Source: Patescibacteria group bacterium
Lineage (GTDB): Bacteria > Patescibacteriota > Microgenomatia > Levybacterales > UBA12049
DNA: 64,000 nt
Assembly (NCBI GenBank): GCA_023485865.1
Contig: JAMCZC010000002.1
Span: 1,000-64,999, forward strand
Direction: 5' to 3'
In this document: positions 1 to 38,444 of the stretch, piece after piece
Layout: every line of letters starts with the position of its first letter
Numbering within the stretch: the first letter of the stretch is position 1
Program-made: the position numbers and the translations under genes
The notes under the pieces: model-generated
Seen by the model: only the letters and a program-made list of their open reading frames with translations
Told to the model about the DNA's origin: nothing
Database searches by the model: none

Positions 1-43
1 TCAATAATATGTCGCTAAAGTTAATTTGTCAAGTGCTTTTCTG

Positions 44-400
44 TCAAAACCAAAACCTTCCTCTGCCGCCTCCTCCGCCCCCGCCATTTCCCCCACCGCC
101 GAAAATCAAAGTACTTACAATCTGGATAATGAAAAAGGAAGCGGAGATAACAATGAGTCCTACTATTGAATAAATCAGCCTATTTCTGGCAGACTGGATT
201 TTTTGCTTGTCTCCTCCCGACATTGTCCATTGAATTCCGGCAAATATTACAAAGGCCAGAGCCGCAACGTCTGCTAAGACAAACAATATGGTTAGAGCAA
301 CCTGGATAATGCCTATTCCGCTTGTGCCAAAGCCTCCGCTTGGAATGCCGCTCGGCACAGGAATAGGGCTCCCATTCATAGTCAAAGCTAACTCTTTCAT
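44..400 (-). CDS. TrbC/VirB2-like pilin (small two-helix membrane protein with Gly-rich C-terminus)
   Basis: 118 aa with two long hydrophobic helices separated by a short basic loop (QWTMSGGDKQKIQSARNRL), the TrbC/VirB2 pilin architecture. The C-terminus is a poly-Gly tail. ATGA start/stop overlap with the upstream gene on the same strand. Family assignment is from topology and motif only, not a search. Confidence 0.45.
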   Translation of the reverse strand: MKELALTMNGSPIPVPSGIPSGGFGTSGIGIIQVALTILFVLADVAALAFVIFAGIQWTMSGGDKQKIQSARNRLIYSIVGLIVISASFFIIQIVSTLIFGGGGNGGGGGGGRGRFWF

Positions 401-1548
401 GGTTTAAAAGCTGGTATATGCAATATGTCCACGCCGATTATTTGCAGTATAACAAGAGCGAAAATGATAAACAATAAGCCGACAATAGCCGCCGTAAGCT
501 GTTCCCTTGCCCCCTTAAGCGCTTCGGGATTGCCTTGGGATGATAATATTTTGTAGCCGGAAATGATAATTAATAGAAGCGCAACTCCCCCAGAAATGCT
601 CAATATTAAACCGAAAGCCCAAGCAATAAAACCTGAAGGATTAGTAGAAATACTTCCTAATGCAGTTTTGCAACTGTCTCCAAAGCAATTGATTTGGTTA
701 AACTGGTCCTGCGTTGTTCCTTTTTGACAAGTAAATTTCTGGTAGTCGGCGTCCGGCAGGCAAACGTATACCCCGTTGCCACAAGAGTTAGCCTTACTCG
801 GGTCGCACTCGCCAGTGGGAACACACGTGTAGGTAGAATTTAATGTAGGGTGGGAGCATGTAGTACTGCCTGTGCAGGCCGGAGAGCATCCTGTATTGGG
901 GACAAAATTGCATTTGCCAATTGTATTAACTCCATCTATGAAGTTGGCGTAAGTTCCAGAAGCGTATTCGCAAATTAAATTACTGCAACATGTCGCTTGG
1001 GTTCCTGCACTGCCAATGCACCCTGTTTGATCTTGTTTAATGCAGTTCGGGACAGGAGGCCTAACAGGAGAACCTTTAGGGTACGCACACCACATTTTGC
1101 CCGCATTATCAAATGAATAACAATACCCTGAACCTGAACATGAGGCTGAACCATAGCCCCATGCAGAACAATCATGGGTGCTGGTGGGGCATCTTGGATC
1201 TCTGTTGGCGCAGTTATAGATAGGGACTGGTGGCGCACCAGTTTTATAAGCACAAAAATGTGCATTATTTTCAGTAGAAAAATAACAACCATTAAGTGTA
1301 TGGCAGTCATTAGCGGGGGTTGCGCTACTTGTTAAATCCTTGCAGTTAGGGTATAGGGAGGTATTTTGCGGGTTACAAGTACTGCTAGTTGGGCTGTTAA
1401 ATCCCGCATTTGGCCTGTTTGAACAGTCAGCTGCATTAGCCTTGCCTGAGAAAGAGGTTAAGAAAAAAGAAATAAAAAAAAATGAAAAAATGAAAATAAA
1501 TATCTTCCTCACACTTTTATCGTACCTTAAGAAATAAACAAAATGCAA
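397..1548 (-). CDS. Secreted Cys-rich protein with C-terminal TrbC/VirB2-like pilin domain (putative pilus-associated adhesin)
   Basis: 383 aa. N-terminal signal-peptide-like hydrophobic segment ending AN-AAD. About 300 aa with roughly 40 Cys, rich in G/S/T/N/P. The last ~80 aa repeat the two-helix-plus-basic-loop pattern of the downstream pilin gene (GFIAWAFGL...YKILSSQGNPEALKGAREQL...IVGLLFIIFALVILQI). 4-nt overlap with the 44..400 gene. Confidence 0.5.
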   Translation of the reverse strand: MHFVYFLRYDKSVRKIFIFIFSFFFISFFLTSFSGKANAADCSNRPNAGFNSPTSSTCNPQNTSLYPNCKDLTSSATPANDCHTLNGCYFSTENNAHFCAYKTGAPPVPIYNCANRDPRCPTSTHDCSAWGYGSASCSGSGYCYSFDNAGKMWCAYPKGSPVRPPVPNCIKQDQTGCIGSAGTQATCCSNLICEYASGTYANFIDGVNTIGKCNFVPNTGCSPACTGSTTCSHPTLNSTYTCVPTGECDPSKANSCGNGVYVCLPDADYQKFTCQKGTTQDQFNQINCFGDSCKTALGSISTNPSGFIAWAFGLILSISGGVALLLIIISGYKILSSQGNPEALKGAREQLTAAIVGLLFIIFALVILQIIGVDILHIPAFKP

Positions 1549-1572
1549 GCCCTGCCCCTATAGATTTCCGAT

Positions 1573-1959
1573 TTATGATTTTTGATTAATGAATGTTTTA
1601 CTTTTTCTGATAAGGCCCTGCAAAAGCGGCCCAACGATATTTGATTGTTTACTTAAAATTGTAAATTGGCTTTCGGTTAAATAGCCTACGTCTTTTGCAA
1701 TAAGTATAAAATTTTTAAGCTCGGATAATGAACCTTTTGCTAAATAATAAAACTGGACTTTTTCTTTATAAGTTTGCCTTCCAAACCCCTCCGCGATATT
1801 TGCAGTTATTGAAGCCGCAGCTCGTCTCATCTGGTCGATTAGCGAGTAGGTTTCTTCTCTTGGGAAATCTTTGGTTATTTTATATACCAAAACAACTAAT
1901 TCATGCCCCTCTTTCCATACGTTCAGATCGGTAAATGATTCAATCTTTCCGTTATTCAT
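1573..1959 (-). CDS. four-helix-bundle protein (23S rRNA intervening-sequence protein family, TIGR02436-like)
   Basis: 128 aa, all-helical. Sequence pattern (W..GHELVVLVYKITKDFPREETYSLIDQMRRAAASITANIAEGFGR...YYLAKGSLSELKNFILIAKDVGYL) matches my memory of this family. Confidence 0.55.
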   Translation of the reverse strand: MNNGKIESFTDLNVWKEGHELVVLVYKITKDFPREETYSLIDQMRRAAASITANIAEGFGRQTYKEKVQFYYLAKGSLSELKNFILIAKDVGYLTESQFTILSKQSNIVGPLLQGLIRKSKTFINQKS

Positions 1960-1996
1960 AAATCTTTAATCAATAATCAGTAATCTTTAAATTTAC

Positions 1997-3382
1997 TTAC
2001 ACAGTAAATTTGAATCCGCGGCCTTTTACCGTTTGGATATGGTTTGGGGTATTGGGGTCGTTTTCTATTTTTTTTCTAAGCCTGAAAATAAGCTGGTCAA
2101 GGGCCTGGTTGGTAACTCCTGCAGTTGACTGCATATTTTCCCAAACTGCATTTATAATTTCTTCTCTTTCAATTATTTTTCCGGCATTTACGATAAAAAA
2201 TTTTAAGAGCTTAAATTCAGACGACGTAAGCTTATCCGAAATAACTAAATTCCCCTTTTTAACCTCATTGGAATTTTGGTCAAAAACAATCTTTTCATTT
2301 TCCGCCGAAAGCTTATTTTTTTCTAAAGCATAGTCTTTTAAAAGCGGAATCGTTAATTTGTTTTTGTCGATTAAACCAACGTTTTCAAGATAAGAAATGT
2401 CCTGATTGGCAAAATTTAAAAGCGTTAATAAGTTTTGTTCGAAAGGGTTTAGGCAGTTCCAAATGCCAAAAAGAGCGCTTCTTACGGGTTTTTGTTTAAG
2501 AAAAAACTCGCCCAGCTCCGAGCTAGACGCTAATGGTTGATTTTTGATTATTGATTTTTGATTATTGATTGTTAGAATTGCCTCCAAACAATGCCTGGTT
2601 AAATTTCCATGTCCTCCGGTTAAGGAAAGAACTTTCCCAAGCGTTTTCTTATCTATTTTTTTGCCTGTTACCTTTTCAAGATATGCAATTCTAAAATCAA
2701 GACCCGGTTTATCTAAAATAGGCAGGTACACAATTTTTCCTGCCATAAATTCGTAAAAATCTCCAAAAAATATAGGTTCAAAAATATCCTCCAGAGGTCT
2801 GGTTGCAGAAAAAACAACGGAAAAGCGGTATTTTGCCCTGTTTCTTAAAACTCTTAAGTTAGCGAAAAAATCAGCGGTTAAAGCGGGAACATATTCTTCG
2901 AACCTGTCTAAAAGGAAAACAATCGCAAGCTCTTTTTCTATGGCCAAAAAATCAATTGCCCTTTTTAGCCCCTGAAATAAAATCAACTCATCATTTAATT
3001 CGATGCTCTCTCTAAAAATTTTATTAACCGCGTCGTATTCATTTTCCATTTTTCTGCCTCTTAAAGAATCTAAAAGCCCTAGGAATATAAATTTAGTTGC
3101 GTCAAAAAGCGGTTTTTTTCTTATTTCCGAAAAATTTAAAAGCACAAAATGAAACCATTTTTGGTTTTCACCTAAATGTTTTAAGCGCACATTTCGGTTA
3201 TAAGCCAAGAGCCCTAAAAGGTTAGATCTTCCTATTCCGGGGACGCCAATTATTTGGCAGGAATTGCCCTCTTTAACAAAAGACAGAATTTTTTCAATCT
3301 CAGGAAATCTCGTATCTTCCGGATACAAAGATTCAAAATGAGAGGAATCGATTGTTAAATTGTTAAATTGTTTCATCTTCAT
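1997..3382 (-). CDS. Transcriptional regulator: N-terminal P-loop ATPase domain fused to C-terminal OmpR/PhoB-type winged-helix DNA-binding domain
   Basis: 461 aa. Walker-A-like GVPGIGRSNLLGLL near the N-terminus (Arg in place of Lys). The C-terminal ~100 aa has the OmpR trans_reg_C signature (FKLLKFFIVNAGKIIEREEIINAVWE...QALDQLIFRLRKKIE...IQTVKGRGFKFTV). Contains an in-frame 15-nt-period tandem repeat at 2536..2571. Confidence 0.55.
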   Translation of the reverse strand: MKMKQFNNLTIDSSHFESLYPEDTRFPEIEKILSFVKEGNSCQIIGVPGIGRSNLLGLLAYNRNVRLKHLGENQKWFHFVLLNFSEIRKKPLFDATKFIFLGLLDSLRGRKMENEYDAVNKIFRESIELNDELILFQGLKRAIDFLAIEKELAIVFLLDRFEEYVPALTADFFANLRVLRNRAKYRFSVVFSATRPLEDIFEPIFFGDFYEFMAGKIVYLPILDKPGLDFRIAYLEKVTGKKIDKKTLGKVLSLTGGHGNLTRHCLEAILTINNQKSIIKNQPLASSSELGEFFLKQKPVRSALFGIWNCLNPFEQNLLTLLNFANQDISYLENVGLIDKNKLTIPLLKDYALEKNKLSAENEKIVFDQNSNEVKKGNLVISDKLTSSEFKLLKFFIVNAGKIIEREEIINAVWENMQSTAGVTNQALDQLIFRLRKKIENDPNTPNHIQTVKGRGFKFTV

Positions 3383-3424
3383 ATCAAAAATAAAATTTTA
3401 AATATAGAATACACATAGTAAAAA

Positions 3425-3796
3425 TCAAATATTATTCCTTTTCCCTTTTAAAGTCAGGACGCTCGATCCGAATATTTTGGAAATTTCATCAAGTTCTGCC
3501 AAAATTGAATCTGCTTCCTCTTTCTCACCGTTACCTGTATCTCGCAATATCAAAACCCAAACCTTGCTTTCATTTGCCGACTTTAGAGAATGATGGAAAT
3601 AGTTCGTATAATCTTTCTTTGAACTTGCAGACTGGCCTTCTATGTAATTACCTAAAATACTTGTCCCGCTTCTTATTAATTGATCTCCGACAATTCTAGT
3701 TGTTTGGGACTTTTTACAATTTTCAACAAATTTAATAATCCTTAAAATAAGGCTATATAAACGTCTTTTAAATTCTCTTTCCCTATTATCTTTCAT
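3425..3796 (-). CDS. four-helix-bundle protein (TIGR02436-like), second copy
   Basis: 123 aa helical protein with the same family pattern (IVGDQLIRSGTSILGNYIEGQSASSKKDYTNYFHHSLKSANESKVWVLIL). It flanks the regulator on the other side. Confidence 0.5.
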   Translation of the reverse strand: MKDNREREFKRRLYSLILRIIKFVENCKKSQTTRIVGDQLIRSGTSILGNYIEGQSASSKKDYTNYFHHSLKSANESKVWVLILRDTGNGEKEEADSILAELDEISKIFGSSVLTLKGKRNNI

Positions 3797-3962
3797 ATTT
3801 AAAATTTAATATTTTATTTAAGTTTTGATATGTATTTTTTATATTTTATATTTAATCTTTTAATTCTCTTCCGCCTTTTGAATTGCTCTGTGGAACTATT
3901 GTAATTTTTTTGTTAGCTAAATATCAAGTTTTTTGTTTGCTTTGGGAATAGAATGACGGCAT

Positions 3963-6900
3963 ATGACAGAGCGAGGGCCAAGAGCAATTGATTTGACAAA
4001 CCAGGCTAATCCTCATAGACTGAATGTAAGAGGAGATATTTTTATGCCAGGAGAACCAGGTGGCGGAGAAACGCCGCCAATACATCATCCAGCAGCAGAA
4101 ACAAGCAAAAAGCCTAGCGAGCCAGCGGAGTCAAAACCAACCTCAAGATATTTACCTGTCACGTTTGAGAGGCAGCAAGAGGTAAGGGAAGCATGGATGA
4201 GAAGACGGGAAGAACAAGAAAGAGGCGGGGAAAGAATAACAAGGGAACAGCTCGAAACGGAAGAAAAACTTATAAGAATGGGAATTCCACCTATTTCAGG
4301 AGGTTCCGGTGATGAACCGGAAGATTCTCAAGGCCAACCTACGGAAACCGATGCGCAAGCTCCTGAAAGAAGAACATTTAAGCCATCTGCTGAATGGCAA
4401 GAAATTCCAAGAAGTGTGGCAATTCCTCCAGGGGCAACAATAAGAATGGATATGGAGTCAGGCAAAAGTTATGCCAAATGGGACACGCCTCCCGAAACAG
4501 AGATTGAATATGAATTTGGAGCAGAAAGTGCCGGAGATGGCGGAGGACAAGAGCCCCCAGTGCGAGGGGCGGGCCCTCCTGCCAGCCCCCCCGGCGGCGA
4601 TGGAGGAGGTAATGAACCGCCCGCTCCGCCAGTAACTCCACCAGGAGGAGAAGGCGGAAATGGAAATGGTGACGAAAATCCTCGGGAAGAACAAGAACCG
4701 GCAAACGAAGGAGCAGATGCGGCTCATGAGCCTGAATCTCCTACGTCGGCCGCAGATCCTATTAGCAAAGCATTGTCTAGGATTCCTGAAGACTTAACTA
4801 AGGATGAAAAAGATTTCATTAGCGAAAATTATGGTGAAGACGCAGAAGACTTAATAAAAAGAGCCACGGAACAAAGAAGGGCGCTAAAACTCTACGCAGA
4901 TCAATTTAGAGAAGAGCGATTTGATAGACTATTCGATCCGGAGCGCTCGTATTATAAATTGAGTGAAGCCATAAGAATGGGAGAGGTCTCCGCGGTAGAG
5001 GCTGAAGAGCTTCGAATGGCAATAGCAACAAGCGCTGTAGCGGAAAGATTACGAAGACAACCCCCTGAAGAAAGGGATGAGATAAGAGATCTACTAGAGA
5101 GAACAAAGGATGGTACGCCGGAAGCAAAACTAGAGAGAAGGAATGGTCTTAAGGGGTGGATTGAAAGAATTAATCCTGATTACATAACAGTTGATCCAAA
5201 TTTCATGCGAGCGGTTGCCGAAGACCCGGAAGCCGCGGAGATGTTTCTTGATAAGATAATTTCAAAACCCTTTGCCTCTCCTGAAGACCAATACAGCCTA
5301 AGCTTTTATGCGGCAATAAATTTATCGGGTTTCTTAACAGAAGTAAATGCCGTAAGTAGACAACGGCACACCGATTATGTGCGGAAAAAAGAAGCTTCGC
5401 TTAGGTTTCATGAAATGAACAGAACCATAATCTCCGAATCGGGCAATCTTGAAGCGTTTTTGAGTATCTCGCGATCGGTAACTCCTCAACACATACAAAC
5501 AGCAACAGAGATAACAGGGGCAGCGCACATGCGACATCTGATTGAAAGCGCCTTTAAAAGGCTATATGCGGCAAAAAATCAAGTAGAGGAACATGACTTT
5601 CCGGAGCAAATTATTGAACGGTCAATAAGGCAATTCTATAGAGATGCAGGGTATGAGCTTGTCGTTGAGCCCGGCGAAAATGAGGGGAAATGGGTATATA
5701 AAGGAAGAGACGTTATCAAAAGCGAATTCCGCGATGCCGATAATAACAAGAGACCCTTAGAAGTTTGGGAAATTGAAAGAGCAGTTGCATTTGGAAGAAA
5801 TATGTCTGCGGCCTTTTACCGTCTATCGGAGCTTGTTTCATGGAGTCATGTTTCCCCGGAAGCGCCGGAATGGCTTAAGTCTATGCCCTCGGAAACCGTG
5901 GTAAGAAATCTCGGAGGCCTTAAAATGCTTCAAGAAAGATTTAAATACGGCCAAACCAAAGGGGGTCCGCAGTTTGTTGCTCTTCTTTACGACAAACTAC
6001 AAAAAGGTTTTAAAGATAAATCCAAAGATTATAACGAAAAGCACGAGAAAGACGGAGAAAGAATGATTACTAAAATTGGCAAACTAAGCATTTTAACAGA
6101 CATACTTCCCACCGGTTTTTATAAGGCCTCGGGATTTGACAAGGGCTGGAGAACTATTGCCGCATACCTTGATACAAAAGTAGCAAGTATAACTATACCT
6201 GATTCAAACATTTTTCCTAATCTAACCAAAAAAGATTTTCCCGAACTCGATCCGAAAAACTTCCCTGACTATAAACCGGAGGATGTGCCAGGCATGGTGA
6301 GAAAAGCAATAGAAGAACTTATGGGTAAAATAAAAGGGAATGAAACAACCTTATATAGATTTCTTCTAAGCCAAGAGCTTGCTGCCCAGCTCGCTACCGC
6401 TGTAAGCGACAAGGAAGCTACGGCTGCCGGGGTATTAACTCCAAAGGAAGACAGACCGTTTAACGCTAAAATACAAAAAATACTTGTTGAACAAGCATTG
6501 ATGCCGCTTTTAGGATATAAATATAACCCGGAGGGAGCTAAGAAAAGAGCTAAAGAGAAAAACCCGCAAGAAGCTAATTGGATAGGTCCGTGGGAATATA
6601 AAGGAGATGCAGAAGCGGGAGATAGGATGGTAGACCAAATAAATCTATCTTTAGGGATTTTGATAGGAAATGGCTCGTCTTCGGAAAGAGTCAAAACTGC
6701 TCTCTGGAAGAAAACTGCGTCTTTCCTGCCGCTTGAAGTTGGGCAACTCTTATCAGAAGCAGGCGTCAGAGAACTTATCGATGATTATGATGTACACAAA
6801 GCCCCCAACGAAAAAATTCAAGGGGAGGGCGAGTTTCTTTTTAGCGACGAATTTGAGAGAAAATTATTCAGGGCGGAACAATCAAGAATTAGAGCGCAAG

Positions 6901-7679
6901 TTCAAGAGCAAGAGAGGGCGGTGGGCGCAGAGGCTAAAGCTGAAAGAATAGCTGGGAGAATTGAGCTCGACAGTTTTCTTGCAACAGCCGGTCTTGATGC
7001 GGATGAAATTGCTTTTGTAAGAAAACTTCAGAAGTTTGGTAAAGATAGAGCCGAACAACTTGCGATGGTTTCTTTCCCGCACATTCCCTTTCTGGAAGAC
7101 GTTCCTTTTGATAAGGCAGATTACATTAGTCTTGGCGCAGAAGTTTTTCCAAGACGAATCGGAAGAGATTTTAGCGGTTATGCAAAAGCAACAGAAGAAG
7201 GCGGAAATATTATCGGCCACCTTGAATTACCATACGAAAACTTTCTTGAAATAGTAGGAAAAGTAGAGGATAGCCTTTCGGGTCCGGAGGGTTCGATAGC
7301 TGCCCAAGATTTGGGCTCAACTTTTCTAAAAACATATATTGATCTTGCCAAACAATGGGGGATTACGCGTTTGCCGCTGGTTAAAGGGGTACGTGAGTTT
7401 AGGGGATTACCAACTTCCGGATTTCAGAAGATCTTCGGACGAGAAGCCCCCTCTTGGGGACCAACGGAGATAAACCATGAAGTTAATGTGGCGCTTGGTA
7501 AAGGACTGATAAGAAGGGAAATAATTCCTGGCGAAAAAGAGTCTCAGACGGATGAAATTTTGCATCACGCACGCGCTGCGTGGCTAAATGTTTTGAATGA
7601 GCAGGGGCCAAAAGGACTGATGTTTCTAATAATGACTGCTCTTTTTAAATTCTTCAAAGAGGTCACGAAAAGTAAGTAA
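3963..7679 (+). CDS. Large acidic hypothetical protein (1238 aa) with Pro/Gly/Glu-rich disordered N-terminal region
   Basis: Single long ORF with no competing frames. No signal peptide or TM segment is visible. Residues ~30-260 are low-complexity (PGGEGGNGNGDE, PPASPPGGDGGG) and locally GC-rich; the remainder looks globular. No domain recognised. The start could instead be the internal MPGEPGG. Confidence 0.6.
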   Translation: MTERGPRAIDLTNQANPHRLNVRGDIFMPGEPGGGETPPIHHPAAETSKKPSEPAESKPTSRYLPVTFERQQEVREAWMRRREEQERGGERITREQLETEEKLIRMGIPPISGGSGDEPEDSQGQPTETDAQAPERRTFKPSAEWQEIPRSVAIPPGATIRMDMESGKSYAKWDTPPETEIEYEFGAESAGDGGGQEPPVRGAGPPASPPGGDGGGNEPPAPPVTPPGGEGGNGNGDENPREEQEPANEGADAAHEPESPTSAADPISKALSRIPEDLTKDEKDFISENYGEDAEDLIKRATEQRRALKLYADQFREERFDRLFDPERSYYKLSEAIRMGEVSAVEAEELRMAIATSAVAERLRRQPPEERDEIRDLLERTKDGTPEAKLERRNGLKGWIERINPDYITVDPNFMRAVAEDPEAAEMFLDKIISKPFASPEDQYSLSFYAAINLSGFLTEVNAVSRQRHTDYVRKKEASLRFHEMNRTIISESGNLEAFLSISRSVTPQHIQTATEITGAAHMRHLIESAFKRLYAAKNQVEEHDFPEQIIERSIRQFYRDAGYELVVEPGENEGKWVYKGRDVIKSEFRDADNNKRPLEVWEIERAVAFGRNMSAAFYRLSELVSWSHVSPEAPEWLKSMPSETVVRNLGGLKMLQERFKYGQTKGGPQFVALLYDKLQKGFKDKSKDYNEKHEKDGERMITKIGKLSILTDILPTGFYKASGFDKGWRTIAAYLDTKVASITIPDSNIFPNLTKKDFPELDPKNFPDYKPEDVPGMVRKAIEELMGKIKGNETTLYRFLLSQELAAQLATAVSDKEATAAGVLTPKEDRPFNAKIQKILVEQALMPLLGYKYNPEGAKKRAKEKNPQEANWIGPWEYKGDAEAGDRMVDQINLSLGILIGNGSSSERVKTALWKKTASFLPLEVGQLLSEAGVRELIDDYDVHKAPNEKIQGEGEFLFSDEFERKLFRAEQSRIRAQVQEQERAVGAEAKAERIAGRIELDSFLATAGLDADEIAFVRKLQKFGKDRAEQLAMVSFPHIPFLEDVPFDKADYISLGAEVFPRRIGRDFSGYAKATEEGGNIIGHLELPYENFLEIVGKVEDSLSGPEGSIAAQDLGSTFLKTYIDLAKQWGITRLPLVKGVREFRGLPTSGFQKIFGREAPSWGPTEINHEVNVALGKGLIRREIIPGEKESQTDEILHHARAAWLNVLNEQGPKGLMFLIMTALFKFFKEVTKSK

Positions 7680-7709
7680 TAATCAGGGTCAGTCTCAAGC
7701 CTAAGATTT

Positions 7710-9428
7710 TCATTTACGCGTAAATGACGGCAATTTAGGGAGCCTTCTTCTTATATAATCCCCGGCTTCAAATACGAGCGCCTGTTTAACGATCGCACTC
7801 GCCGCAGATCCTGGAGCGCCTACAACCGCAGTTCCTGTTCCGAGGTATCTGCCTATCGGAGCAAGGTCAATTTTCGGAGCCTTAAAAGCAGCTTTTGTCA
7901 TATTTACAACACTCGGTGTGGAAAGTATGACTCCGACTGTGATTAAAGCACCTATTGCGCCGGATACTCCGGGGTTGCCAACAAGAGGAGGGACAAATTG
8001 TCCGCCGGTTTGCGTTGCGCCGACAGCAGTACTTAACATTTTTCCAATAAGGAACATAGCTATGGTTACCGGAAAAGCGGAAAGATTAGCAACTATATCT
8101 CTTAGCCAGGCACCGAAGCCTACATTTTGTGAATTCCCCCCAGGCATAAGGCCGGCTATTATCCAAAACGGCGCAAAAATAACATCCACCAAAACCATAA
8201 CGTAGGCTATAATAAGAGTAAACCAAAGCCTGATTAGCGCGGCAAAAACGGCAATAAAAATTATTAAAAATATAATTGTATTAGGGATAATTTCTCTTAA
8301 AAGGACTTCAAAGCCTGCGAGAGAAATAATTCCCGCCCCGCCCCCGATAAGAGTATTTAAGCCAGGTATGTTGCCGAAGAAACCTGCTGGATTTGCTTGA
8401 GCCACTTGTATGCCTGTCATTATTGCTGCTATGCTGCTTATTGTATGAATTAATATGTTTACAGGACTGTTATCAAGTACTCCTCCCAATGGCCCCCCGA
8501 TTCCTATAATGCTCCTAAACATATCTCCGAATGGACCTGCTACCCCCATTATTGCGTTAAAGCCTCCGCCTCCGCTTGCTCCGCCCTTTGCCATCGCATC
8601 AAAAGCTGCAAAAGGAGTGTTGCCTTGGAGAAAAACAGGATTTAGAGTACTTAAGTCAGCATTGGGAACGGACTTAGCAGTTTCAGAAAAAACATTAAAA
8701 AATAAATAAATAGCCACATACATTACGTCGATAAGAAATCCTGCAATTGCAAAGGAAAAAGTCACCATGAGTAATCCGATTATTATTTTGGGAATTTGGT
8801 TTTGAATAGTCATTACGGTTCTTGGGTCAATTTTGACTCTTAGCATGATTGCGATGCCTATAATTACAAACACTAAGATAAAAATAAGATAAACAATATT
8901 TCTGAAAACAGACCAAACGCCAATTAAGTTTAATTTGCTTAGCCCGCAAAACCCAATTCCGCGCGGGTCCTGATAGCAAGGGTTGGGGGCAGGAGATACG
9001 GCGTATGTGGGTTTTGAAATACCAAAATTTTGAGATAAATAGTTAATATAATCTCTGGAGCGTATGGGCGGAGTATATAGGATGGTAATTAAATTACCCA
9101 TTACCCCTACCGCGCCGCCGCCGTTTTCGACAAACCCGATTTTTCCGGTTTTTTGGTCAACGCCTAAGCATTTTGCCGAAGGATTGGTGGGGTCAACTCC
9201 TGCCAGCTGGCAAGTCATTGCCGACATTACTTCTATCATTACGTTTTGCGTCCAGTTGTGGAGATTATTCGGAACATCCGGATTTGTGTTTGGCGAGGTA
9301 TAAGAATTAACCGGTTGAGTTTGCGGCTGAACAGGTGCTTGGGCGAAGGTCGGTGCCTTAATAAGCAACAGCGAAAAAAATACAAGAAGAACAAAAATTA
9401 TGGATTTAAACAAGGCAGCTTTCCTCAT
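7710..9428 (-). CDS. TrbL/VirB6-like polytopic membrane protein (type IV secretion inner-membrane component-like)
   Basis: 572 aa. Signal peptide (MRKAALFKSIIFVLLVFFSLLLIKAPTFAQA) followed by a soluble N-terminal region. At least 6 TM helices and Gly-rich loops (GGASGGGGFNAIMGVAGPFG), typical of TrbL/VirB6. Assignment is from architecture; in the same locus as the pilin genes. Confidence 0.45.
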   Translation of the reverse strand: MRKAALFKSIIFVLLVFFSLLLIKAPTFAQAPVQPQTQPVNSYTSPNTNPDVPNNLHNWTQNVMIEVMSAMTCQLAGVDPTNPSAKCLGVDQKTGKIGFVENGGGAVGVMGNLITILYTPPIRSRDYINYLSQNFGISKPTYAVSPAPNPCYQDPRGIGFCGLSKLNLIGVWSVFRNIVYLIFILVFVIIGIAIMLRVKIDPRTVMTIQNQIPKIIIGLLMVTFSFAIAGFLIDVMYVAIYLFFNVFSETAKSVPNADLSTLNPVFLQGNTPFAAFDAMAKGGASGGGGFNAIMGVAGPFGDMFRSIIGIGGPLGGVLDNSPVNILIHTISSIAAIMTGIQVAQANPAGFFGNIPGLNTLIGGGAGIISLAGFEVLLREIIPNTIIFLIIFIAVFAALIRLWFTLIIAYVMVLVDVIFAPFWIIAGLMPGGNSQNVGFGAWLRDIVANLSAFPVTIAMFLIGKMLSTAVGATQTGGQFVPPLVGNPGVSGAIGALITVGVILSTPSVVNMTKAAFKAPKIDLAPIGRYLGTGTAVVGAPGSAASAIVKQALVFEAGDYIRRRLPKLPSFTRK

Positions 9429-9642
9429 AAACTATACGCTAGACGCTAATTGCTAAACGCTAAATATAGTTTGTCCTATTTTCTTATGGATGTCAACCCC
9501 GTTAAAACTCTGGTTATAAACTTGAATTTAATATGGGGATTGAAAATAGTCAGTTGAGCTTTGAACTAACAAAAGAAACAAAGTTTTAACGGGGTAAGGT
9601 TTGTTAAAAAACATAAATTGAAGTAAAATACCCTTAGGATAT

Positions 9643-9716
9643 GCTCTCGTAGCTCAGCTGGATAGAGCGCGACGTTGCGGACGTCGAGGCCGAAGGTTCG
9701 AATCCTTTCGAGAGCG
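9643..9716 (+). tRNA. tRNA-Arg (anticodon GCG)
   Basis: Manual cloverleaf. Acceptor GCTCTCG/CGAGAGC, D-stem GCTC/GAGC, anticodon stem CGACG/CGTCG with loop TTGCGGA (U33, G37). A20 present (Arg identity element). T-arm GAAGG-TTCGAAT-CCTTT, discriminator G. No CCA encoded. Confidence 0.75.
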
Positions 9717-9720
9717 CTAG

Positions 9721-9807
9721 GGAGGAGTGCAAGAGCGGTTTATTTGGCCGGTTTCGAAAACCGAGCGGGTCGTAAGACTCACACAGGTTCAAATCCTGTC
9801 TCCTCCG
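9721..9807 (+). tRNA. tRNA-Ser (anticodon CGA), type II
   Basis: Acceptor GGAGGAG/CTCCTCC. Anticodon loop TTCGAAA. Long variable arm. T-arm ACAGG-TTCAAAT-CCTGT. Closely resembles E. coli tRNA-Ser(CGA). Confidence 0.8.
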
Positions 9808-9808
9808 C

Positions 9809-11177: not shown

Positions 11178-12986
11178 CTACCTGCTGGCTCTTAAAGCGT
11201 TAATTATTACCGCAACGTCAATCGCTTCCTGGATAAACGCCCCGCCGATTGGGGGAATTAGGCCAAAAGAGGCTAAAACCATTCCCAAAACACTTATACC
11301 AATTCCCCAAAAAATGCTTTGTTTTGCAATATAAATTGTTTTTTTGGCAATATTTAGCGAATCAAGAACTAGTGAAAAATTACCGCCTAAAAAGACAATA
11401 TCGGCCGCTTCCGAAGCCGCGGTTTGTTCTTCGTTACTAAAAACCATACCAACGTCTGCTAAGGCTAGGGCCGGCGCGTCATTTATTCCGTCTCCGACCA
11501 TTGCGGTAATTTTTCCCTGTTTTTTTAGCTCGTGGATTCCTTTTTGCTTGTCTTCCGGAGCGCACTCGGCTTTTACAATGACATCTCTGCCTAATTGCGC
11601 GGCTACCTTATCTGCAGCTTCTTTTTTATCCCCGGTAAAAATAAAAATCTGAAACCCGGCCTTTTTGAGGTTGGTAATTATATTTTTTGAATCCTGTTTT
11701 ATTTCGTCTTCAAATCTAAAAATTCCGATGGATTTATTATTCTCCAAAATTTCGATTGCCATGCCGTCTGCCGATTTTAACTTGGAAAGAGTGTATTTTT
11801 CGCCGTTTACCGTTCCTGATATTCCAACCCCTACCTTTTCTTGGATTTTTTCAGCGTGGATAACATTTGCATTTTTTTCTTTGGCAAAGTTAACTATAGC
11901 TTTGGCTAAAGGATGCAAAGAGTTTCTTTCGATGCTTTCGGCAATTGCCAAAAGCTCTTTGTCCGTATAGTTTTTGGCTGAATTTTTGAATTCAAGTACT
12001 CTGGGTTTGCCAAGTGTTATGGTACCTGTTTTATCAAAAATCAGTGCCTGGGTACGGGATAGGATTTCAATGCTGGCTAACTTTTTAACGATAATGTGTT
12101 TTTTTGAGGCCGAATTTACTCCTCCCAAAAGCGCAATCGGTGTTGCAATAATTAAAGGACAGGGTGTTGCAATAGCCAAAACTGCCAAGGCCCTGGTTAA
12201 ATCAAAACCCGAGTAAATATATGAAAATCCGGTTATAATTAAAGTGACAAGAGTAAAAATTCCGCTGTATTTATCTGCCATTCTAACCAGCGGTGATTTT
12301 TCGTCCTGCGCCTTTTTAACCATATCGATAATCTTGTTGTAGGTTGAGTCCGCCTGGACTTTGGTTATTTTTATAACTATCGGGTCGCCGATATTAATGG
12401 TTCCGCTTCTGATACTGTCGCCTTTTATTTTTTCAATCGTATAGGGCTCGCCTGTTAAGGAGGATTCGTCGGTTAAGCCGGCCTCGGATTCTAAAATTCC
12501 GTCGAGCCCGATTACTTCGCCTTTTCTGATTAAGACGAAATCGCCTATTTTTACTTTGCCGATAGTTATTTTTGCCCCGGCCCTGGCGCCTGTCCCGTTT
12601 GACGGGATTTCCCACAAAATTACTTCGCTTGGAATTCTTTCCGCCAGTTTTGTCAGGGACTTTTTAGCTTGGGCAACGCCGTAATCTTCCAGGGTTCTGC
12701 CCGAGGAAATCATCAAGGCCAAAATTGAGGCAACGAGATATTCTTTGGTAATTAAAGAAACGACAATTGCCAAAATTGCAATGTAATCCAGAGCAAAGCG
12801 TTTTTTTAAAAGATTTAAGAATGTTTCCTTAAAAAGTCTGTAGCTTCCCAAAATTGTGACAAGAATGGCAATTATTACTGCGGGAGTGTTTTGCTTTAAA
12901 AGCTCTAAGGCAACATATAAAACGATGCCAAAAAGAATTATCGCGGGGACTTTGAAAGTGTTGAGCAGAGCAGTTTTGTTGTTCAT
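11178..12986 (-). CDS. Heavy-metal (Cu+/Zn-type) translocating P1B-type ATPase
   Basis: 602 aa. Phosphorylation motif DKTGTITLG, hinge GDGINDAPAL, and membrane CPC motif (ATPCPLIIATP) characteristic of P1B ATPases. No N-terminal metal-binding domain. Confidence 0.85.
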   Translation of the reverse strand: MNNKTALLNTFKVPAIILFGIVLYVALELLKQNTPAVIIAILVTILGSYRLFKETFLNLLKKRFALDYIAILAIVVSLITKEYLVASILALMISSGRTLEDYGVAQAKKSLTKLAERIPSEVILWEIPSNGTGARAGAKITIGKVKIGDFVLIRKGEVIGLDGILESEAGLTDESSLTGEPYTIEKIKGDSIRSGTINIGDPIVIKITKVQADSTYNKIIDMVKKAQDEKSPLVRMADKYSGIFTLVTLIITGFSYIYSGFDLTRALAVLAIATPCPLIIATPIALLGGVNSASKKHIIVKKLASIEILSRTQALIFDKTGTITLGKPRVLEFKNSAKNYTDKELLAIAESIERNSLHPLAKAIVNFAKEKNANVIHAEKIQEKVGVGISGTVNGEKYTLSKLKSADGMAIEILENNKSIGIFRFEDEIKQDSKNIITNLKKAGFQIFIFTGDKKEAADKVAAQLGRDVIVKAECAPEDKQKGIHELKKQGKITAMVGDGINDAPALALADVGMVFSNEEQTAASEAADIVFLGGNFSLVLDSLNIAKKTIYIAKQSIFWGIGISVLGMVLASFGLIPPIGGAFIQEAIDVAVIINALRASR

Positions 12987-33605: not shown

Positions 33606-34055
33606 ATGAAATGTCCTTATTGCGGTAGCAAAGATACAGAAGTAGTAGAAACAAGAGACAGCGAAGACTTGGAAACCATTAGGAGAAGAAGGGCTTGCCT
33701 TAAGTGTGAGAAGAGATTTACTACTTACGAAAGAGTTGAAAATGTCAATTTGGTAGTAATAAAAAAAGACGGAAGACGAGAACAATTTAACAGAGATAAA
33801 TTAAAAAACGGAATAATCAGGTCTTGCGAGAAAACAAAAGTATCTCTTGATGACATAGAAAGAATAGTAACGGAAGTTGAAAGAGAATTAAGGGGAGAGT
33901 CGGGTGTCGAAGTGGAAAGCAAAAAAATAGGACAGCTGGTTGCAACAAGACTTAAGAAAATTGACAAGGTTGCATACATAAGATTTTCGAGCGTCTTCAG
34001 AAGGTTTGTTGACGTAGAAGATTTTGAAAAAGAAGTAAAAAAACTAATTAAATAA
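33606..34055 (+). CDS. nrdR: Transcriptional repressor NrdR
   Basis: MKCPYCGSKDTEVVETRDSEDLETIRRRRACLKCEKRFTTYERVE: zinc ribbon plus ATP-cone, highly conserved. Confidence 0.9.
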   Translation: MKCPYCGSKDTEVVETRDSEDLETIRRRRACLKCEKRFTTYERVENVNLVVIKKDGRREQFNRDKLKNGIIRSCEKTKVSLDDIERIVTEVERELRGESGVEVESKKIGQLVATRLKKIDKVAYIRFSSVFRRFVDVEDFEKEVKKLIK

Positions 34056-34058
34056 ATT

Positions 34059-36500
34059 ATGAAACTTGACGGAATAAGACAAAAAGTATTTTTAGACAGA
34101 TATTCTTTTAAAGATAAACAGGGTAATCCTATGGAAAAAACTCCCGAGGAAATGTGGAGGAGGGTTGCCAAAGGAATTGCCGGAGTTGAAAAACCGAAAG
34201 AGCGAAAAAAATGGGAAAAGAAATTTTATGATGTAATGGATGATTTCAAATTCTTGCCCGGCGGAAGAATTCTGGCAGGCGCCGGAACCGGATTTGATGT
34301 TACTTATTACAACTGTTTTGTTATCCCAAATCCGCCTGATTCTAGGGGCGGAATAATGGCAAACCTTACCCAGATGATAGAAATTATGGCCCACGGTGGC
34401 GGAGTCGGGCTTAATCTTTCAAGTCTTCGTCCAAGGGGTTCAAGGGTTAAAAAAGTAAATGGCTTTTCTTCGGGTCCGTTAAACTGGGCGGAACTTTATT
34501 CTCTGGCGACAAAAGATATTGTCCAGCAGGGTGGAAGTCGAAGGGGCGCTTTAATGCTTATGCTTTGGGATTGGCATCCCGATATCGAAGAGTTTATAAC
34601 CGTTAAACAGGATTTAAATAAAATAAACGGTGCCAATCTTTCGGTCTGCATTTCGGACGCTTTTATGGAAGCGGTAAAAAAGAACGCCGATTGGGATTTG
34701 GTTTATCCGGACTTGGATGATCCAAAATATGATAAAAAATGGACAGGAGATTTAAGTGCATGGAAAAAAGCGGGCGGGAAAATAGTTGTTAAAAAAACAG
34801 TTAAGGCGCAATATCTTTGGGATTTAATTTGTCAGGCAGCCTGGAGAAGTGCCGAGCCGGGACTCCACTTCTTAGATAGAAGCAATAAACGAAGCAATAC
34901 CTGGTATTTTGAGACATTGCTTTCAACAAATCCCTGCGGTGAACAACCTCTTTCCGCTTGGGCAGTTTGCAATTTGGGCGCAATGAATTTAGCGGCTTAT
35001 GTAAGAAGCGGAAAATTTGATTTTGAAAATTTTGGCAAAGACGTAAAAGTTGCGATGAGATTTTTGGACAATGTTATTGATGATACGTATTATTTCTACA
35101 AAGAAAACGAGAAAGTTGCCAAAGACATAAGAAGAACGGGCTTAGGAATTTTAGGCCTTGCCGATGCTTTAATAAAAATGAAAGTTAAATACGGCTCGGA
35201 AGAATCTTTAAAAATTATTGACAAAATCTTTAAAACCCTAAGGGATAATGCCTATATTGCTTCATCGGATATTGCCGAAGAAAAAGGTACTTTTCCAAAA
35301 TATAACAAGGAAAAATATCTTGCGGGATGGCATATTAAAAAATTACCGGAGGAAATAAAAGCAAAAATTGCTAAACAAGGAATAAGAAATGCAGTTTTGC
35401 TAACGGTTGCTCCGACCGGAACAACATCGCTTATCTCGGGAGTTTCATCGGGGATAGAACCGGTTTACGAATTTGAATTTTTAAGAAACGACAGACTTGG
35501 CCAGCATTTAATGTATCATCCTTTGTATGAAGAATGGAAAAAAACAAATCCCGGGAGAGCAAAACCCGACTATTTTGTTTCGGCAAACGACTTAACTCCG
35601 GAAGAGCATGTTAAAGTTCAGGCAATTGCGCAGGAATACGTTGATTCTTCGATTAGCAAAACAGTAAATGCTCCAAAGGAACATACAGTTGACGATGTAA
35701 AAAATCTCTATATGCTTTCTTATGACTCCGGTCTTAAAGGCGTTACTTATATGCGGGATGGTTCCCGTCAGGGAGTTTTGGAAAGAATAGATGATAAAAA
35801 AGAAAAAACGCAAGAAAAAGCGTCAATTCCTGTTGTAGCTCCGGTTGTTCCAAGACCTGTTATGGTTGAAGGAGTTACTTATCAAACCGAAACTCCGGTT
35901 GGAAAAACTTTTATAACGATTAATCATAACGAGAATAAAGACCCGTTTGAGGTATTTATAACCGTTGGTAAATCAGGTTCCGATGTTACCGCAATGGCAG
36001 ACGCATTGGGCAGAATGATCTCTTTAAACCTTCGTCTTAACGGAGCGCTTTCCTCAAGAGAAAGAATAAAACAGGTGGTGGCCCAGCTTATAGGTATCGG
36101 CGGAGCAAGAAGCGTTGGTTTTGGAGAAAACAAAGTCCGTTCTCTTCCTGATGCAATTGCTAAAGTTTTGTCAAAACACTTTGAATTTAGAGTAAACGGA
36201 GTTGTTGAAGATAAATCTAAGAACGGAACAAGCGGCAATGGAGCAGTTTATAAAAACGGCACCACAAACGGTCTTTCTAATGAGCATATAAAGCTTACAG
36301 CTGACGGAGTTGAAAAAAAACAAACGGATGAAATAATTAAGCTGGAACAGTTAACGCTTGGGACACAAGAAGGGCCTATGATAGCAGGGGAGGATCCGGC
36401 AACAGGACTTTCCGATATCTGCCCCGAGTGCGGAGGAGCGAGCCTTGCCTACGAAGAGGGCTGTAAAAAATGCTACGCCTGCGGATATTCGGAATGTTAA
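34059..36500 (+). CDS. nrdJ: Class II (adenosylcobalamin-dependent) ribonucleotide reductase
   Basis: 813 aa. Catalytic NPCGEQPL motif. C-terminal Zn-ribbon CPECGG...CKKCYACGYSEC typical of monomeric NrdJ. Confidence 0.85.
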   Translation: MKLDGIRQKVFLDRYSFKDKQGNPMEKTPEEMWRRVAKGIAGVEKPKERKKWEKKFYDVMDDFKFLPGGRILAGAGTGFDVTYYNCFVIPNPPDSRGGIMANLTQMIEIMAHGGGVGLNLSSLRPRGSRVKKVNGFSSGPLNWAELYSLATKDIVQQGGSRRGALMLMLWDWHPDIEEFITVKQDLNKINGANLSVCISDAFMEAVKKNADWDLVYPDLDDPKYDKKWTGDLSAWKKAGGKIVVKKTVKAQYLWDLICQAAWRSAEPGLHFLDRSNKRSNTWYFETLLSTNPCGEQPLSAWAVCNLGAMNLAAYVRSGKFDFENFGKDVKVAMRFLDNVIDDTYYFYKENEKVAKDIRRTGLGILGLADALIKMKVKYGSEESLKIIDKIFKTLRDNAYIASSDIAEEKGTFPKYNKEKYLAGWHIKKLPEEIKAKIAKQGIRNAVLLTVAPTGTTSLISGVSSGIEPVYEFEFLRNDRLGQHLMYHPLYEEWKKTNPGRAKPDYFVSANDLTPEEHVKVQAIAQEYVDSSISKTVNAPKEHTVDDVKNLYMLSYDSGLKGVTYMRDGSRQGVLERIDDKKEKTQEKASIPVVAPVVPRPVMVEGVTYQTETPVGKTFITINHNENKDPFEVFITVGKSGSDVTAMADALGRMISLNLRLNGALSSRERIKQVVAQLIGIGGARSVGFGENKVRSLPDAIAKVLSKHFEFRVNGVVEDKSKNGTSGNGAVYKNGTTNGLSNEHIKLTADGVEKKQTDEIIKLEQLTLGTQEGPMIAGEDPATGLSDICPECGGASLAYEEGCKKCYACGYSEC

Positions 36501-37180: not shown

Positions 37181-37184
37181 AATC

Positions 37185-37330
37185 TTTCGGGTGAAGAGGG
37201 TGGAATTCCCTCGCTGTGCCGCAACTGTATAGTCAGAACCCCGTTCTGCAAAGCAGAATTTGCAGAGAAAAATCTTCCGAGCAGAAGTGCATTTTTATTT
37301 TACACAACTTCTCGGAATGGGGAGTTTTTT
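37185..37330 (+). promoter_or_regulatory. Candidate cobalamin riboswitch (B12 element) in 5' leader of gene 37332..38444
   Basis: Contains GAGGG-UGGAAUU-CCCUC (the GGUGnnAAnUCC hairpin of B12 elements). This is followed by GCUGUGCCGCAACUGUA, matching the conserved GCUGnnCCGCAACnGUAA junction, then AGUCAGAACCCCG resembling the B12-box AGYCMGGAGACCKGCC. Called from memory of the consensus; not verified by a covariance model. Confidence 0.4.
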
Positions 37331-37331
37331 T

Positions 37332-38444
37332 ATGGCCGAAGCGCAATCTTACAATTACCAAAGACCAAGGGAGCTTGCCGATTCTAAAAATTTTGCCGTT
37401 GAGTACGCACCGATTGTTAACAGAAGAGAAATAGAAGACGATATCATTGCTTATCTTGGTGAATTCAGATTTGGATTAAAGAAATCCGATTATCGTTTGG
37501 TATTTTCTCGCACAGACGATGAGGGTTGGAGACTTCGTGACCCCCACAGGCTGGAATCAATGGCAATTAAAGCGCAAAGGGCGATAACAGAAAGAAGACA
37601 ACGGGGGGAAATTACGCCTAGGGAAACAGCGGAGGCTAGTGGTCTTAATTTTTTAGATCAACAGTTGCAAACTGCAAGCGAAGAGGGTTCAATCGTTTGG
37701 GCCAGTCCGCCGGGAGCAGAAAGCCAAGGCTACGGAGATTATGGATTCTTCTACATCGGACAAATTGGGAGAATGATTGCCAACAGAAGAGAAGTTGCAA
37801 TGACGGCAATCAGAGTTAACGGAAGAAGCCTTCCTGATTATGAAAAAGCTTTTAAAAGGTTGTCCGGAATTGACTTCAAATTTAAAAACCCGGAAGATTT
37901 TTTAAGAATGCCGGTGATTTTAAATGACAGTTTGCCTAAAGAGCTTATTGACAGTACTCTGGGTACTATTTTTCCAAATCAAGAAAATGTAAGCGACAAT
38001 TCGGTTGAATTTCAGTTAGCTATTGCAAGAATAAAAAATAGAATAGGAGAATTCATAGATTATTGTGCTTTTGCAACTCCGACCGAAAAAGCTAAAGCTT
38101 TTCATGCCTTAGAGAATTATTTTCTTGAGGTTAGAGAAGAGATTAGATCCGGAAAAACAGTTGTTTATCAAAAGAAACGGGAGTTCAAACAGTTGGTTGC
38201 TGACTATGGTAGCAGAAAAACTCCTGAAGTTAAAGGAAGCTGTCCTATCTCAAGCCAGAACCCTTTAAATAGCAGTAACATTTTTAATGGTGGATTTGAA
38301 GCTTTGAACAACCTAATAAACCAGGAATGGTTTACTTGTCCCAAATGTCATTACAAAGCAGACGGGCCGGTTGGAAATACCTGTCCAGGTTGTGGTTTGA
38401 CAAAGGAGGCTTATGCGCAAGAATCAGGGCAAATCTGCGAGTGA
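37332..38444 (+). CDS. hypothetical protein with C-terminal Zn-ribbon (CPKCHYK...CPGCG)
   Basis: ATG at 37332 with GGGGAG SD 9 nt upstream. The ORF-track N-terminal extension would overlap the structured leader. No family recognised. Confidence 0.5.
   Translation: MAEAQSYNYQRPRELADSKNFAVEYAPIVNRREIEDDIIAYLGEFRFGLKKSDYRLVFSRTDDEGWRLRDPHRLESMAIKAQRAITERRQRGEITPRETAEASGLNFLDQQLQTASEEGSIVWASPPGAESQGYGDYGFFYIGQIGRMIANRREVAMTAIRVNGRSLPDYEKAFKRLSGIDFKFKNPEDFLRMPVILNDSLPKELIDSTLGTIFPNQENVSDNSVEFQLAIARIKNRIGEFIDYCAFATPTEKAKAFHALENYFLEVREEIRSGKTVVYQKKREFKQLVADYGSRKTPEVKGSCPISSQNPLNSSNIFNGGFEALNNLINQEWFTCPKCHYKADGPVGNTCPGCGLTKEAYAQESGQICE

Follow-up and report, generated by a model that had tools for sequence, protein, structure and literature searches.

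The subject of this work is a pair of minus-strand genes at the beginning of a 64-kb stretch of DNA from a Patescibacteria group bacterium (64,000 nucleotides, hereafter the window). They encode a long and a short pilin of a type IV secretion system (T4SS), and the long one carries a large cysteine-rich domain predicted to lie outside the cell (the ectodomain). The corresponding open reading frames (ORFs) occupy 397..1548 (383 amino acids (aa), counted from a TTG codon) and 44..400 (118 aa). An earlier note on this DNA, made by a model from the sequence, had described two genes overlapping by an ATGA and coding, one for a cysteine-rich domain joined to a pilin-fold anchor and the other for a pilin by itself. 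Both descriptions held. The genes overlap by four nucleotides at 397-400, the ATG at 400-398 being the start codon of the short pilin gene and the TGA at 399-397 the stop codon of the long one, and the fusion was confirmed by PF18895 matches, BLASTP and hydropathy analysis (see below). The main features of the pair are:

397..1512, minus strand: long (modular) T4SS pilin gene, 371 aa, from GTG (1512-1510) to TGA (399-397); PF18895 score 31.2 bits
44..400, minus strand: short T4SS pilin gene, array position 2, 118 aa; PF18895 score 28.0 bits; product identical to P0121
397..400, minus strand: ATGA stop/start overlap of the long and short pilin genes, read from the sequence

The gene pair and the pilin anchor

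The true start of the long gene is most likely the GTG at 1512 and not the mechanical ORF start, TTG 1548, because the resulting 371-aa product equals the database protein P0001 exactly (100% identity) and begins with a classical signal peptide. P0001 has been called on three independent Logan assemblies, on contigs of 2.3-2.6 kb. The short pilin is likewise 100% identical to a database protein, P0121, located on a Patescibacteria contig of 66,270 bp, and identical to the NCBI protein M1405_00055. The ATGA overlap suggests translational coupling of the two genes; in 35 of 62 related loci the gap between the long and the first short pilin gene is 10 nt or less.

It could be argued that the large ORF arose artificially, through misassembly or a frameshift which joined an unrelated cysteine-rich gene to a pilin gene, a danger which the earlier note had pointed out with regard to a frameshift. 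This explanation was rejected and can be regarded as refuted: the identical 371-aa product was found in the three independent assemblies, P0002, the closest relative of full length, shows 54% identity along 99% of the protein, and the same architecture was present in each of the 120 best homologues as well as in 83 genome loci.

Membership of the two proteins in the pilin family was assessed with the Pfam profile PF18895 (T4SS_pilin). Its gathering cut-off of 26.6 bits is exceeded by both proteins over their C-terminal two-helix regions, and a Pfam scan found matches to the same profile in 120 of 120 long and 30 of 30 short homologues. When the two proteins were compared by BLASTP, residues 286-364 of the 371-aa protein (298-376 of the 383-aa ORF) aligned with residues 22-100 of the short pilin (29% identity over 79 residues, E 9e-10), which answers the C-terminal comparison proposed in the earlier note. 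Hydropathy analysis, which corresponds to the transmembrane and signal prediction proposed there, detected in the long pilin a signal-peptide-like segment at residues 1-24 and a hairpin at 293-324 / 335-370, and in the short pilin a hairpin at 23-60 / 73-103. AlphaFold2 placed the helices at 292-324 and 329-363 in the long protein and at 27-60 and 65-101 in the short one, with a short loop between them. With PF18895 matches and hairpins in both, the claim that the two proteins end in a pilin-type two-helix motif stands. The loop had been called basic; this is correct for the short pilin (SGGDKQKIQSARNR), whereas the loop of the long pilin is not net basic. The C-terminal part of the long pilin is composed of the following elements:

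400..636, minus strand: pilin anchor, residues 293-371, two long helices and the loop SSQGNPEALKGAREQ, by PF18895 and AlphaFold2
637..687, minus strand: juxtamembrane segment, residues 276-292, C-x4-C-K-T-A-L-G-x-I-x-T-x-P, near-invariant among long pilins

The identity of the anchor is 60-84% across hundreds of homologues, and its loop is almost invariant over 120 of them. Residues T283, G286 and P292 are conserved in at least 90% of the sequences (alignments A1 and A4). In all 120 best homologues a long variable region precedes the pilin hairpin at the C-terminus, and most of them start with a signal-peptide-like segment.

Many long pilins (P0002, P0004, P0023, P0035 and others) and short pilins (P0127, P0128, P0131, P0140, P0145 and P0147) have a similar tail after the second helix, ...G-S/A-x-P-x-x-R/H-[IL]-G-G-[PQA]. 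This common tail may be a sign that long and short pilins share a motif for processing or recognition at the C-terminus. The short pilin of the window ends differently:

47..100, minus strand: Gly-rich C-terminal tail, GGGGNGGGGGGGRGRFWF, encoded by mixed GGN codons and not by a homopolymer run

AlphaFold2 predicted this tail to be disordered, with a predicted local distance difference test score (pLDDT) below 50. Gly-rich tails of varying length are present in about 10 of 57 short-pilin orthologues (tail list read by eye), where they end in short hydrophobic motifs (...LIPI, ...RFPI, ...IIPI); other orthologues end in ...R/H-[IL]-GG-P or have no tail, including the orthologue of the syntenic contig L001 described below. 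Because of this variability and absence among orthologues the tail is best regarded as a lineage-variable, probably extracellular appendage and not as a defining feature; although called unusual in the earlier note, it is not unique.

The cysteine-rich ectodomain

The part of the long pilin before the anchor contains the following features:

1432..1512, minus strand: signal peptide, residues 1-27 (MRKIFIFIFSFFFISFFLTSFSGKANA, followed by A), hydrophobic over residues 1-24, with an A-x-A motif
643..1431, minus strand: ectodomain, residues 28-290 (~263 aa), rich in S, T, N, G and P
1210..1344, minus strand: CAY module copy 1, residues 57-101, read by eye
1042..1170, minus strand: CAY module copy 2, residues 115-157, found by pattern match
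910..1044, minus strand: knottin-like six-Cys module, residues 157-201, C-x7-C-x9-CC-x4-C-x19-C, found by pattern match

The signal peptide reads MRKIFIFIF...GKANA/A, where the slash marks the cleavage site predicted by the -3/-1 rule. The long pilin has 28 Cys, all within residues 30-281, and Cys makes up 10.6% of the ectodomain. In the other proteins of the window the Cys content is between 0 and 3.4%, and all but one have 1.8% or less. The richness in cysteine is thus real and extreme for this genome. The earlier note was right in recognizing a Cys-rich secreted domain, but its sizes (~300 aa and ~40 Cys) were too high.

Two kinds of modules could be discerned in the ectodomain. The CAY module (~45 aa) can be written as C...C-Y-x-F...C-A-Y-K-x-G-x-P-P-x-P...N-C; one copy was detected by pattern in protein P0179, in which further copies were read by eye, and the segment 115-157 is 44-48% identical to its equivalents in P0005, P0007 and P0010. 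The knottin-like module has the signature G-T-Q-x-x-CC-x-N-L-I-C, its pattern occurs also in P0179 and three times in P0180, and the corresponding segment is 66% identical in P0002. Residues 157-201 conform to the C-C-CC-C-C framework within ~30-50 residues which characterizes knottin mini-proteins; a Pfam scan and fold searches of the ectodomain yielded no curated knottin family and nothing specific. AlphaFold2, run with a 26-sequence alignment, modelled the ectodomain as a string of small beta-hairpin modules with module pLDDT values of ~70-86.

Relatives of the ectodomain were sought in several ways. There was no match in a sequence search of the PDB, where the best hit was a trefoil peptide with E 0.12, and none in fold searches of the PDB with the ectodomain model. 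The Pfam scan of the 120 long pilins returned PF18895, one weak TrbC match and two isolated weak beta-sandwich matches. When 1.84 billion cluster representatives were scanned in full with HMMER, only seven ectodomain matches were obtained. One of these, P0178, was considered as a distant relative and rejected as an artefact, a spurious repetitive translation; the rest were other long pilins and one small protein made of three knottin-like repeats. The ectodomain has almost no relatives outside the long pilins.

Even among the long pilins the ectodomains differ widely. The median pairwise identity is 54.5% for the anchors and 10% for the ectodomains, and among the 141 pairs whose anchors share 70% identity or more, 87 have ectodomains that share less than 25%. 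With the flanking genes as control, comparison of the window with the related locus L005 gave 82% identity for the neighbouring regulator, 82% for the anchor and 8% for the ectodomain (82-83%, 79-82% and 8-16%, respectively, when locus L028 was included); the ectodomain of L005 belongs to another type, which has 10 Cys and almost the same length. Other relatives match the window protein in parts. P0002 has modules a-c in common with it (58, 41 and 66% identity) and differs in the juxtamembrane segment (33%), whereas P0003 has the juxtamembrane segment (88%) and module d (48%) in common and is only 11-21% identical in a-c. The first pilin of the arrays has a signal peptide and an ectodomain of 150-570 aa. 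In a set of 83 long pilins encoded in genomes, all with a signal peptide that could be recognised, the median length of the ectodomain was 275 aa, the number of Cys was even in 75, as would suit disulfide bonding, and the Cys content was at least 8% in 25. These comparisons indicate that the ectodomain is hypervariable and mosaic and is carried on the most conserved anchor of the four pilins of the array (see below).

The presence of a neighbouring bAvd-like gene raised the possibility of variation driven by a diversity-generating retroelement. This was rejected: there are no template/variable repeats (no long imperfect direct repeats in 1-10000) and no reverse transcriptase among the neighbour genes, and the adjacent bAvd-like match is a 23S_rRNA_IVP protein whose bAvd score does not reach the cut-off.

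A role in host contact, with the long pilin at the tip or as a minor pilin, would fit these data, as well as the constant first place of the long pilin in the array and the fact that no PrgB-type adhesin is known for these systems (PMC12102498). Wholesale replacement of the ectodomain between genomes whose flanking genes are more than 80% identical, and an ectodomain without a binding domain recognisable by Pfam, would also be compatible with variation that serves mainly for escape from T4SS-pilus phages or host defences, in which case the ectodomain would be a decoy or shield and not a specific adhesin. The multiple VirB2 paralogues of Bartonella and Anaplasma have been read as antigenic variation or adaptation to a range of host surfaces (PMC12102498). 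We consider escape an improbable main cause: a genome has one, rarely two, long pilins, the loci contain no silent cassette library, and no diversity-generating repeats lie nearby. Escape and binding specificity are, moreover, not mutually exclusive.

The junction between ectodomain and anchor allows a different view of the Cys-rich region, namely as a very long pro-region which would be cut near the TALG motif to leave a short mature pilin, perhaps with release of a knottin-like fragment. The near-invariant motif is situated exactly at this junction, the N-terminus of the short pilins (MKELALxxNGxxIxxPxGIPSGGF) resembles it, and a six-Cys framework is typical of stable secreted mini-proteins. 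Unusually long leader peptides are known from the conjugative pilins TraA and TrbC. However, a folded, disulfide-rich and hypervariable leader of 263 aa is without known precedent, a classical signal peptide is already present at the N-terminus, and no protease gene is conserved beside the array. Processing of this kind therefore seems very improbable, and in what follows the ectodomain is taken to stay joined to its anchor.

The pilin array and its surroundings

The window begins 43 nt past the stop codon of the short pilin gene, and the rest of the cluster is cut off by the window edge. It could not be recovered from other assemblies, as an exact-sequence look-up with the short pilin returned no contig and the P0001 contigs are as short as stated above. 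The genes to be expected there were deduced from related loci. A scan with one genome per species yielded 80 such loci, for the most part from Levybacteria and other Microgenomatia, which were analysed by ORF search, hidden Markov models and tblastn. Where informative, their titles name Levybacteria, Daviesbacteria, Microgenomates or 'Patescibacteria group'; together with P0121 they support the view that the organism, called episymbiont-like in the earlier note, is a member of the Candidate Phyla Radiation (CPR)/Patescibacteria. Some 35 loci, as well as L005, L007 and L008, carry this CPR T4SS/pilin cluster under the title 'uncultured Gammaproteobacteria bacterium', a label of metagenome-assembled genomes which looks wrong.

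Where the contig was long enough, the gene order was near-universal: one (occasionally two) long pilins, three to seven short pilins, a PrgI-like protein, a TrsD-like protein and VirB4, with dnaN/dnaA a few kb past VirB4. The arrays comprise four to eight PF18895 genes and the long pilin is always the first. One such locus is L001, a 188-kb contig which carries P0002. There an AAA-like/Trans_reg_C regulator is followed by the long pilin (382 aa) and pilins of 104 and 133 aa, and these by PrgI-family, TraC/TrsD-like and VirB4-like ATPase genes, two more proteins (one of them with a HELGH motif and SLT-like motifs), dnaN and dnaA. Its fourth pilin is a 102-aa ORF at 11967..12275 (plus strand), which is absent from the source annotation; a 126-aa ORF on the opposite strand is listed there in its place. 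Upstream of the regulator, the genes of L001 have counterparts in the window as far as ~13.7 kb. These syntenic relatives support the view that the gene pair of the window opens the pilin array of a VirB4-type T4SS cluster.

The relationship between the array positions was studied in those 45 loci whose array consists of exactly one long pilin and three short ones. For 174 of the 180 pilins the best cross-genome match was at the same array position. The median identity between genomes was 60, 36, 48 and 44% for positions 1 to 4, and that between positions within a genome was 25-39%. The same-position best matches show that the array is a fixed set of four ancient paralogues, of which the anchor of the long pilin is the best conserved. 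Such a positionally orthologous set suggests a hetero-oligomeric structure rather than interchangeable antigenic variants. An origin from mobile elements found no support, as there was no tblastn match in 72,556 plasmids and no PHROG match.

These observations bear on a further explanation, according to which the long protein is a static, membrane-anchored envelope protein that never polymerises, its pilin-like hairpin being just an anchor or an element that docks to the T4SS channel. One could think, for example, of a stalk or cap spanning the wall or S-layer in a pilus-less T4SS of Gram-positive type. The VirB4 lineage is of the monoderm MPF_FATA type, whose systems are generally without pili (PMC12102498), and the near-invariant loop and juxtamembrane motif suggest a fixed protein-protein contact. 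In addition, the ectodomains of five close relatives are of similar length in spite of unrelated sequence (260 aa in the window, 257 in L001, 260 in L005, 254 in L028 and 248 in L006), which could reflect a length constraint such as that on an envelope-spanning spacer. In the wider family, however, the length of the ectodomain ranges from less than 100 to 566 aa, the joint retention of four positionally orthologous paralogues is more easily explained by a hetero-polymer, and pilus formation by these systems is held plausible in reviews (PMC12857230). On balance a purely static protein seems unlikely, although it deserves more attention than the other alternatives, and incorporation of the long pilin into a filament is preferred here.

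Two further features border the gene pair:

1997..3382, minus strand: putative regulator, conserved upstream neighbour, 461 aa; Trans_reg_C match with E 6.8e-20
4..32, minus strand: sigma-70-like promoter match, TTGACA-17-TATTAT (11/12), just downstream of the short pilin gene; consensus match only

The regulator has an N-terminal P-loop-like motif (GVPGIGRSNLL) and a C-terminal winged-helix domain of the OmpR/PhoB type, and most of the related loci have a homologue of it immediately upstream of the long pilin. The predicted promoter at 4..32 points out of the window and could drive the expected next pilin gene. In the region upstream of the long pilin gene (1513-1572) the promoter scan gave no match at its threshold.

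The regulator gene is flanked by two 23S_rRNA_IVP genes (four-helix-bundle, bAvd-like) at 1573..1959 and 3425..3796, both on the minus strand and each bracketed by inverted repeats (1559-1578 / 1956-1975 and 3379-3434 / 3795-3865). They resemble small inserted cassettes, because both are absent from the syntenic L001. Farther upstream, 3963..7679 (plus strand) codes for an acidic protein of 1238 aa without Cys or Pfam match, and 7710..9428 (minus strand) for a protein of 572 aa with about nine hydrophobic segments and again no Pfam match. Their L001 counterparts, of 1044 and 531 aa, lie beside the pilin array, and the two proteins may functionally be part of the T4SS region.

More distant parts of the window contain several RNA features. 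Between 9643 and 15412 there is a dense patch of RNA genes (tRNA-Arg, four tRNA-Ser with different anticodons and tmRNA) with small protein genes interspersed. An AdoCbl-II (B12) riboswitch aptamer at 37171-37251 (plus strand) is situated directly upstream of the ORF 37260..38444 and downstream of a zinc-ribbon ORF (33606..34055) and an 813-aa ORF (34059..36500). Rfam identified a complete group I intron at 44047-44240 (plus strand, 78.8 bits), within ~44028-44287. Its flanks read like a class I tRNA with the acceptor GCGGGGT...CCCCGCA, divided into two halves within the anticodon loop; ARAGORN called no tRNA here.

Proposed role and comparison with known systems

In the mechanism that we propose, the long pilin would be exported by Sec and its signal peptide cut after ANA27. 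Outside the cell the following ~263 residues would form a row of small modules knotted by disulfides, up to 14 in number, while the C-terminal two-helix hairpin would hold the protein in the membrane with both termini outside. A VirB4-driven machine would take this hairpin together with the three short pilins, the first of which is probably translationally coupled to the long pilin, and the long pilin would be incorporated into the filament, most likely as a minor or terminal subunit. There it would offer the host cell a binding surface that is specific to the lineage, and would thereby set host specificity. A minor or terminal role is suggested because the ectodomain is bulky, present in a single copy and swapped wholesale among close relatives while the anchor is kept, and because a 263-aa graft on every subunit would be hard to pack. 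We judge the chain as a whole, a modular T4SS pilin serving as minor or terminal subunit with a host-contact surface, to be moderately probable, while the adhesin or tip part of the explanation, taken separately, is put forward tentatively. More speculative is the general form of the proposal, in which the VirB2-like scaffold of Microgenomatia would be a display platform, one position-conserved paralogue of which carries an exchangeable disulfide-knotted cassette of ~250-300 aa that determines the host specificity of an essential CPR T4SS.

Several points weigh against this mechanism. The structure prediction suggested in the earlier note gave the small beta-hairpin modules but not their overall arrangement: the AlphaFold2 model of the long pilin is moderate (pLDDT 68, predicted template modelling score 0.29) and the arrangement of domains is undefined. 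The ectodomain contains no recognisable binding domain, Pfam matches at E up to 10 being only noise, and no disulfide-forming enzyme was found among the window proteins. For this genome the presence of the T4SS genes, which lie beyond the window edge, is deduced from synteny. Hypervariability would be equally expected from phage or host-defence pressure, and the pilus of Patescibacteria T4SSs is itself a prediction. In Southlakia epibionticum (Saccharibacteria), the one genetically tractable species, a PF18895 pilin array, which lies in the T4SS cluster, and the T4SS were shown by transposon sequencing (Tn-seq) to be essential for epibiotic growth (Wang et al. 2023, PMC10633639). This essentiality cannot be carried over to the long form, because the pilins of the Southlakia array (SEML1_0014-0019) are all short, ~125-185 aa (PMC10633639).

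Much of bacterial diversity belongs to the Patescibacteria, whose way of life is attachment to other microbes, and little is known of how they recognise and exploit hosts. A swappable outer domain on a strongly conserved anchor is a concrete, sequence-defined candidate for the missing host-contact element. If the mechanism is true, the long pilin would be the first adhesin-bearing ('modular') T4SS pilin, and its ectodomain would provide a sequence-readable host-range marker for uncultivated CPR bacteria.

The two proteins resemble the VirB2/TrbC (PF04956) and TraA pilins in having a small two-helix hairpin with a short polar loop and termini predicted to be outside, and in being encoded with VirB3-like and VirB4 genes. 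They differ in that VirB2/TrbC and TraA are Gram-negative proteins without a large ectodomain, whereas the present ones come from a monoderm whose pilus is hypothetical. The designation 'VirB2/TrbC-like' used in the earlier note could not be supported independently. Neither window protein matches PF04956 at E up to 1; weak matches were obtained for 3 of 30 short relatives (best E 8.5e-4) and 1 of 120 long relatives (best E 6.7e-4). Comparison by hhalign of the short-pilin alignment (A2) with a six-sequence VirB2/TrbC alignment rebuilt from annotated plasmids (A3) was not significant (probability 0.45%, E 0.13), the short-pilin profile compared with a single VirB2 sequence gave a probability of 3.8%, and a search of PDB sequences with this profile found no pilin. 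The statement that the proteins work like T4SS pilins is thus based on family assignment, topology and genomic context and not on demonstrated VirB2 kinship. In F and T pili of solved structure both ends of the pilin point to the outer side of the filament, so that a graft at the N-terminus would be exposed on the surface.

The proposed role is similar to that of the VirB5/TraC minor pilin, a low-copy subunit at the end of the filament which touches the target cell. VirB5, however, is a soluble helical protein and not a VirB2-type hairpin with a graft, and no likeness of the window pilins to VirB5 was found in Pfam, NCBIfam or fold searches. For T4SS clusters of the Patescibacteria clade no VirB5 homologue is reported; one occurred solely in a rare cluster of MPF_T type (PMC12102498). 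The combination of parts has an analogue in type IV pili, an unrelated filament system. There, modular pilins and large minor pilins such as PilB and PilC of Streptococcus sanguinis and CofB of enterotoxigenic Escherichia coli join a conserved pilin module to a grafted functional or adhesive module. In these the pilin module is N-terminal and the graft C-terminal, whereas in the T4SS long pilin of the window the order is reversed. Weak hairpin matches to NCBIfam NF045849 (Mbov_0395) were also found (E 1e-4, 21.6 bits, and E 6e-5, 22.6 bits; cut-off 40 bits). This pilin-like family of a Mycoplasma integrative and conjugative element is likewise a component of a monoderm T4SS and is without an ectodomain.

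The nearest systems are those of Patescibacteria themselves, the function of whose T4SS has been called 'completely unknown' (PMC11665869). A survey described MPF_FATA-related VirB4 with abundant TrsD and PrgI (Quinonero-Coronel et al. 2025, PMC12102498). With PF04956 and PF18895 it also detected VirB2-like pilins and reported 441 arrays of 2-11 pilin genes (PMC12102498). The arrays are close to virB4 and dnaA and are particularly common in Microgenomatia and Saccharimonadia; an adhesin of PrgB type was not found for the systems (PMC12102498). A 2025 review considers them unique among monoderm T4SSs since they may build pili (PMC12857230). The window likewise has PF18895 genes in tandem, an overlapping pair, and its syntenic relatives likewise have a VirB4/PrgI/TrsD cluster that is chromosomal and beside dnaA/dnaN. 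Almost certainly, then, the genes belong to the known pilin array of Patescibacteria T4SSs, in a Levybacteria-like member of the class Microgenomatia, so that in its basic form the finding is not new. Pilins with a large ectodomain are not mentioned in the main texts of PMC10633639, PMC12102498 and PMC12857230, and a targeted literature search was likewise empty. The long modular pilin, with its exchangeable disulfide-rich ectodomain on the best-conserved anchor, and the positional orthology within the array thus both appear to be undescribed. The survey reads divergence within the arrays as host versatility (PMC12102498); here the variable part is the ectodomain of the first pilin, and the positional orthology of the four genes refines the published reading of the pilin arrays.

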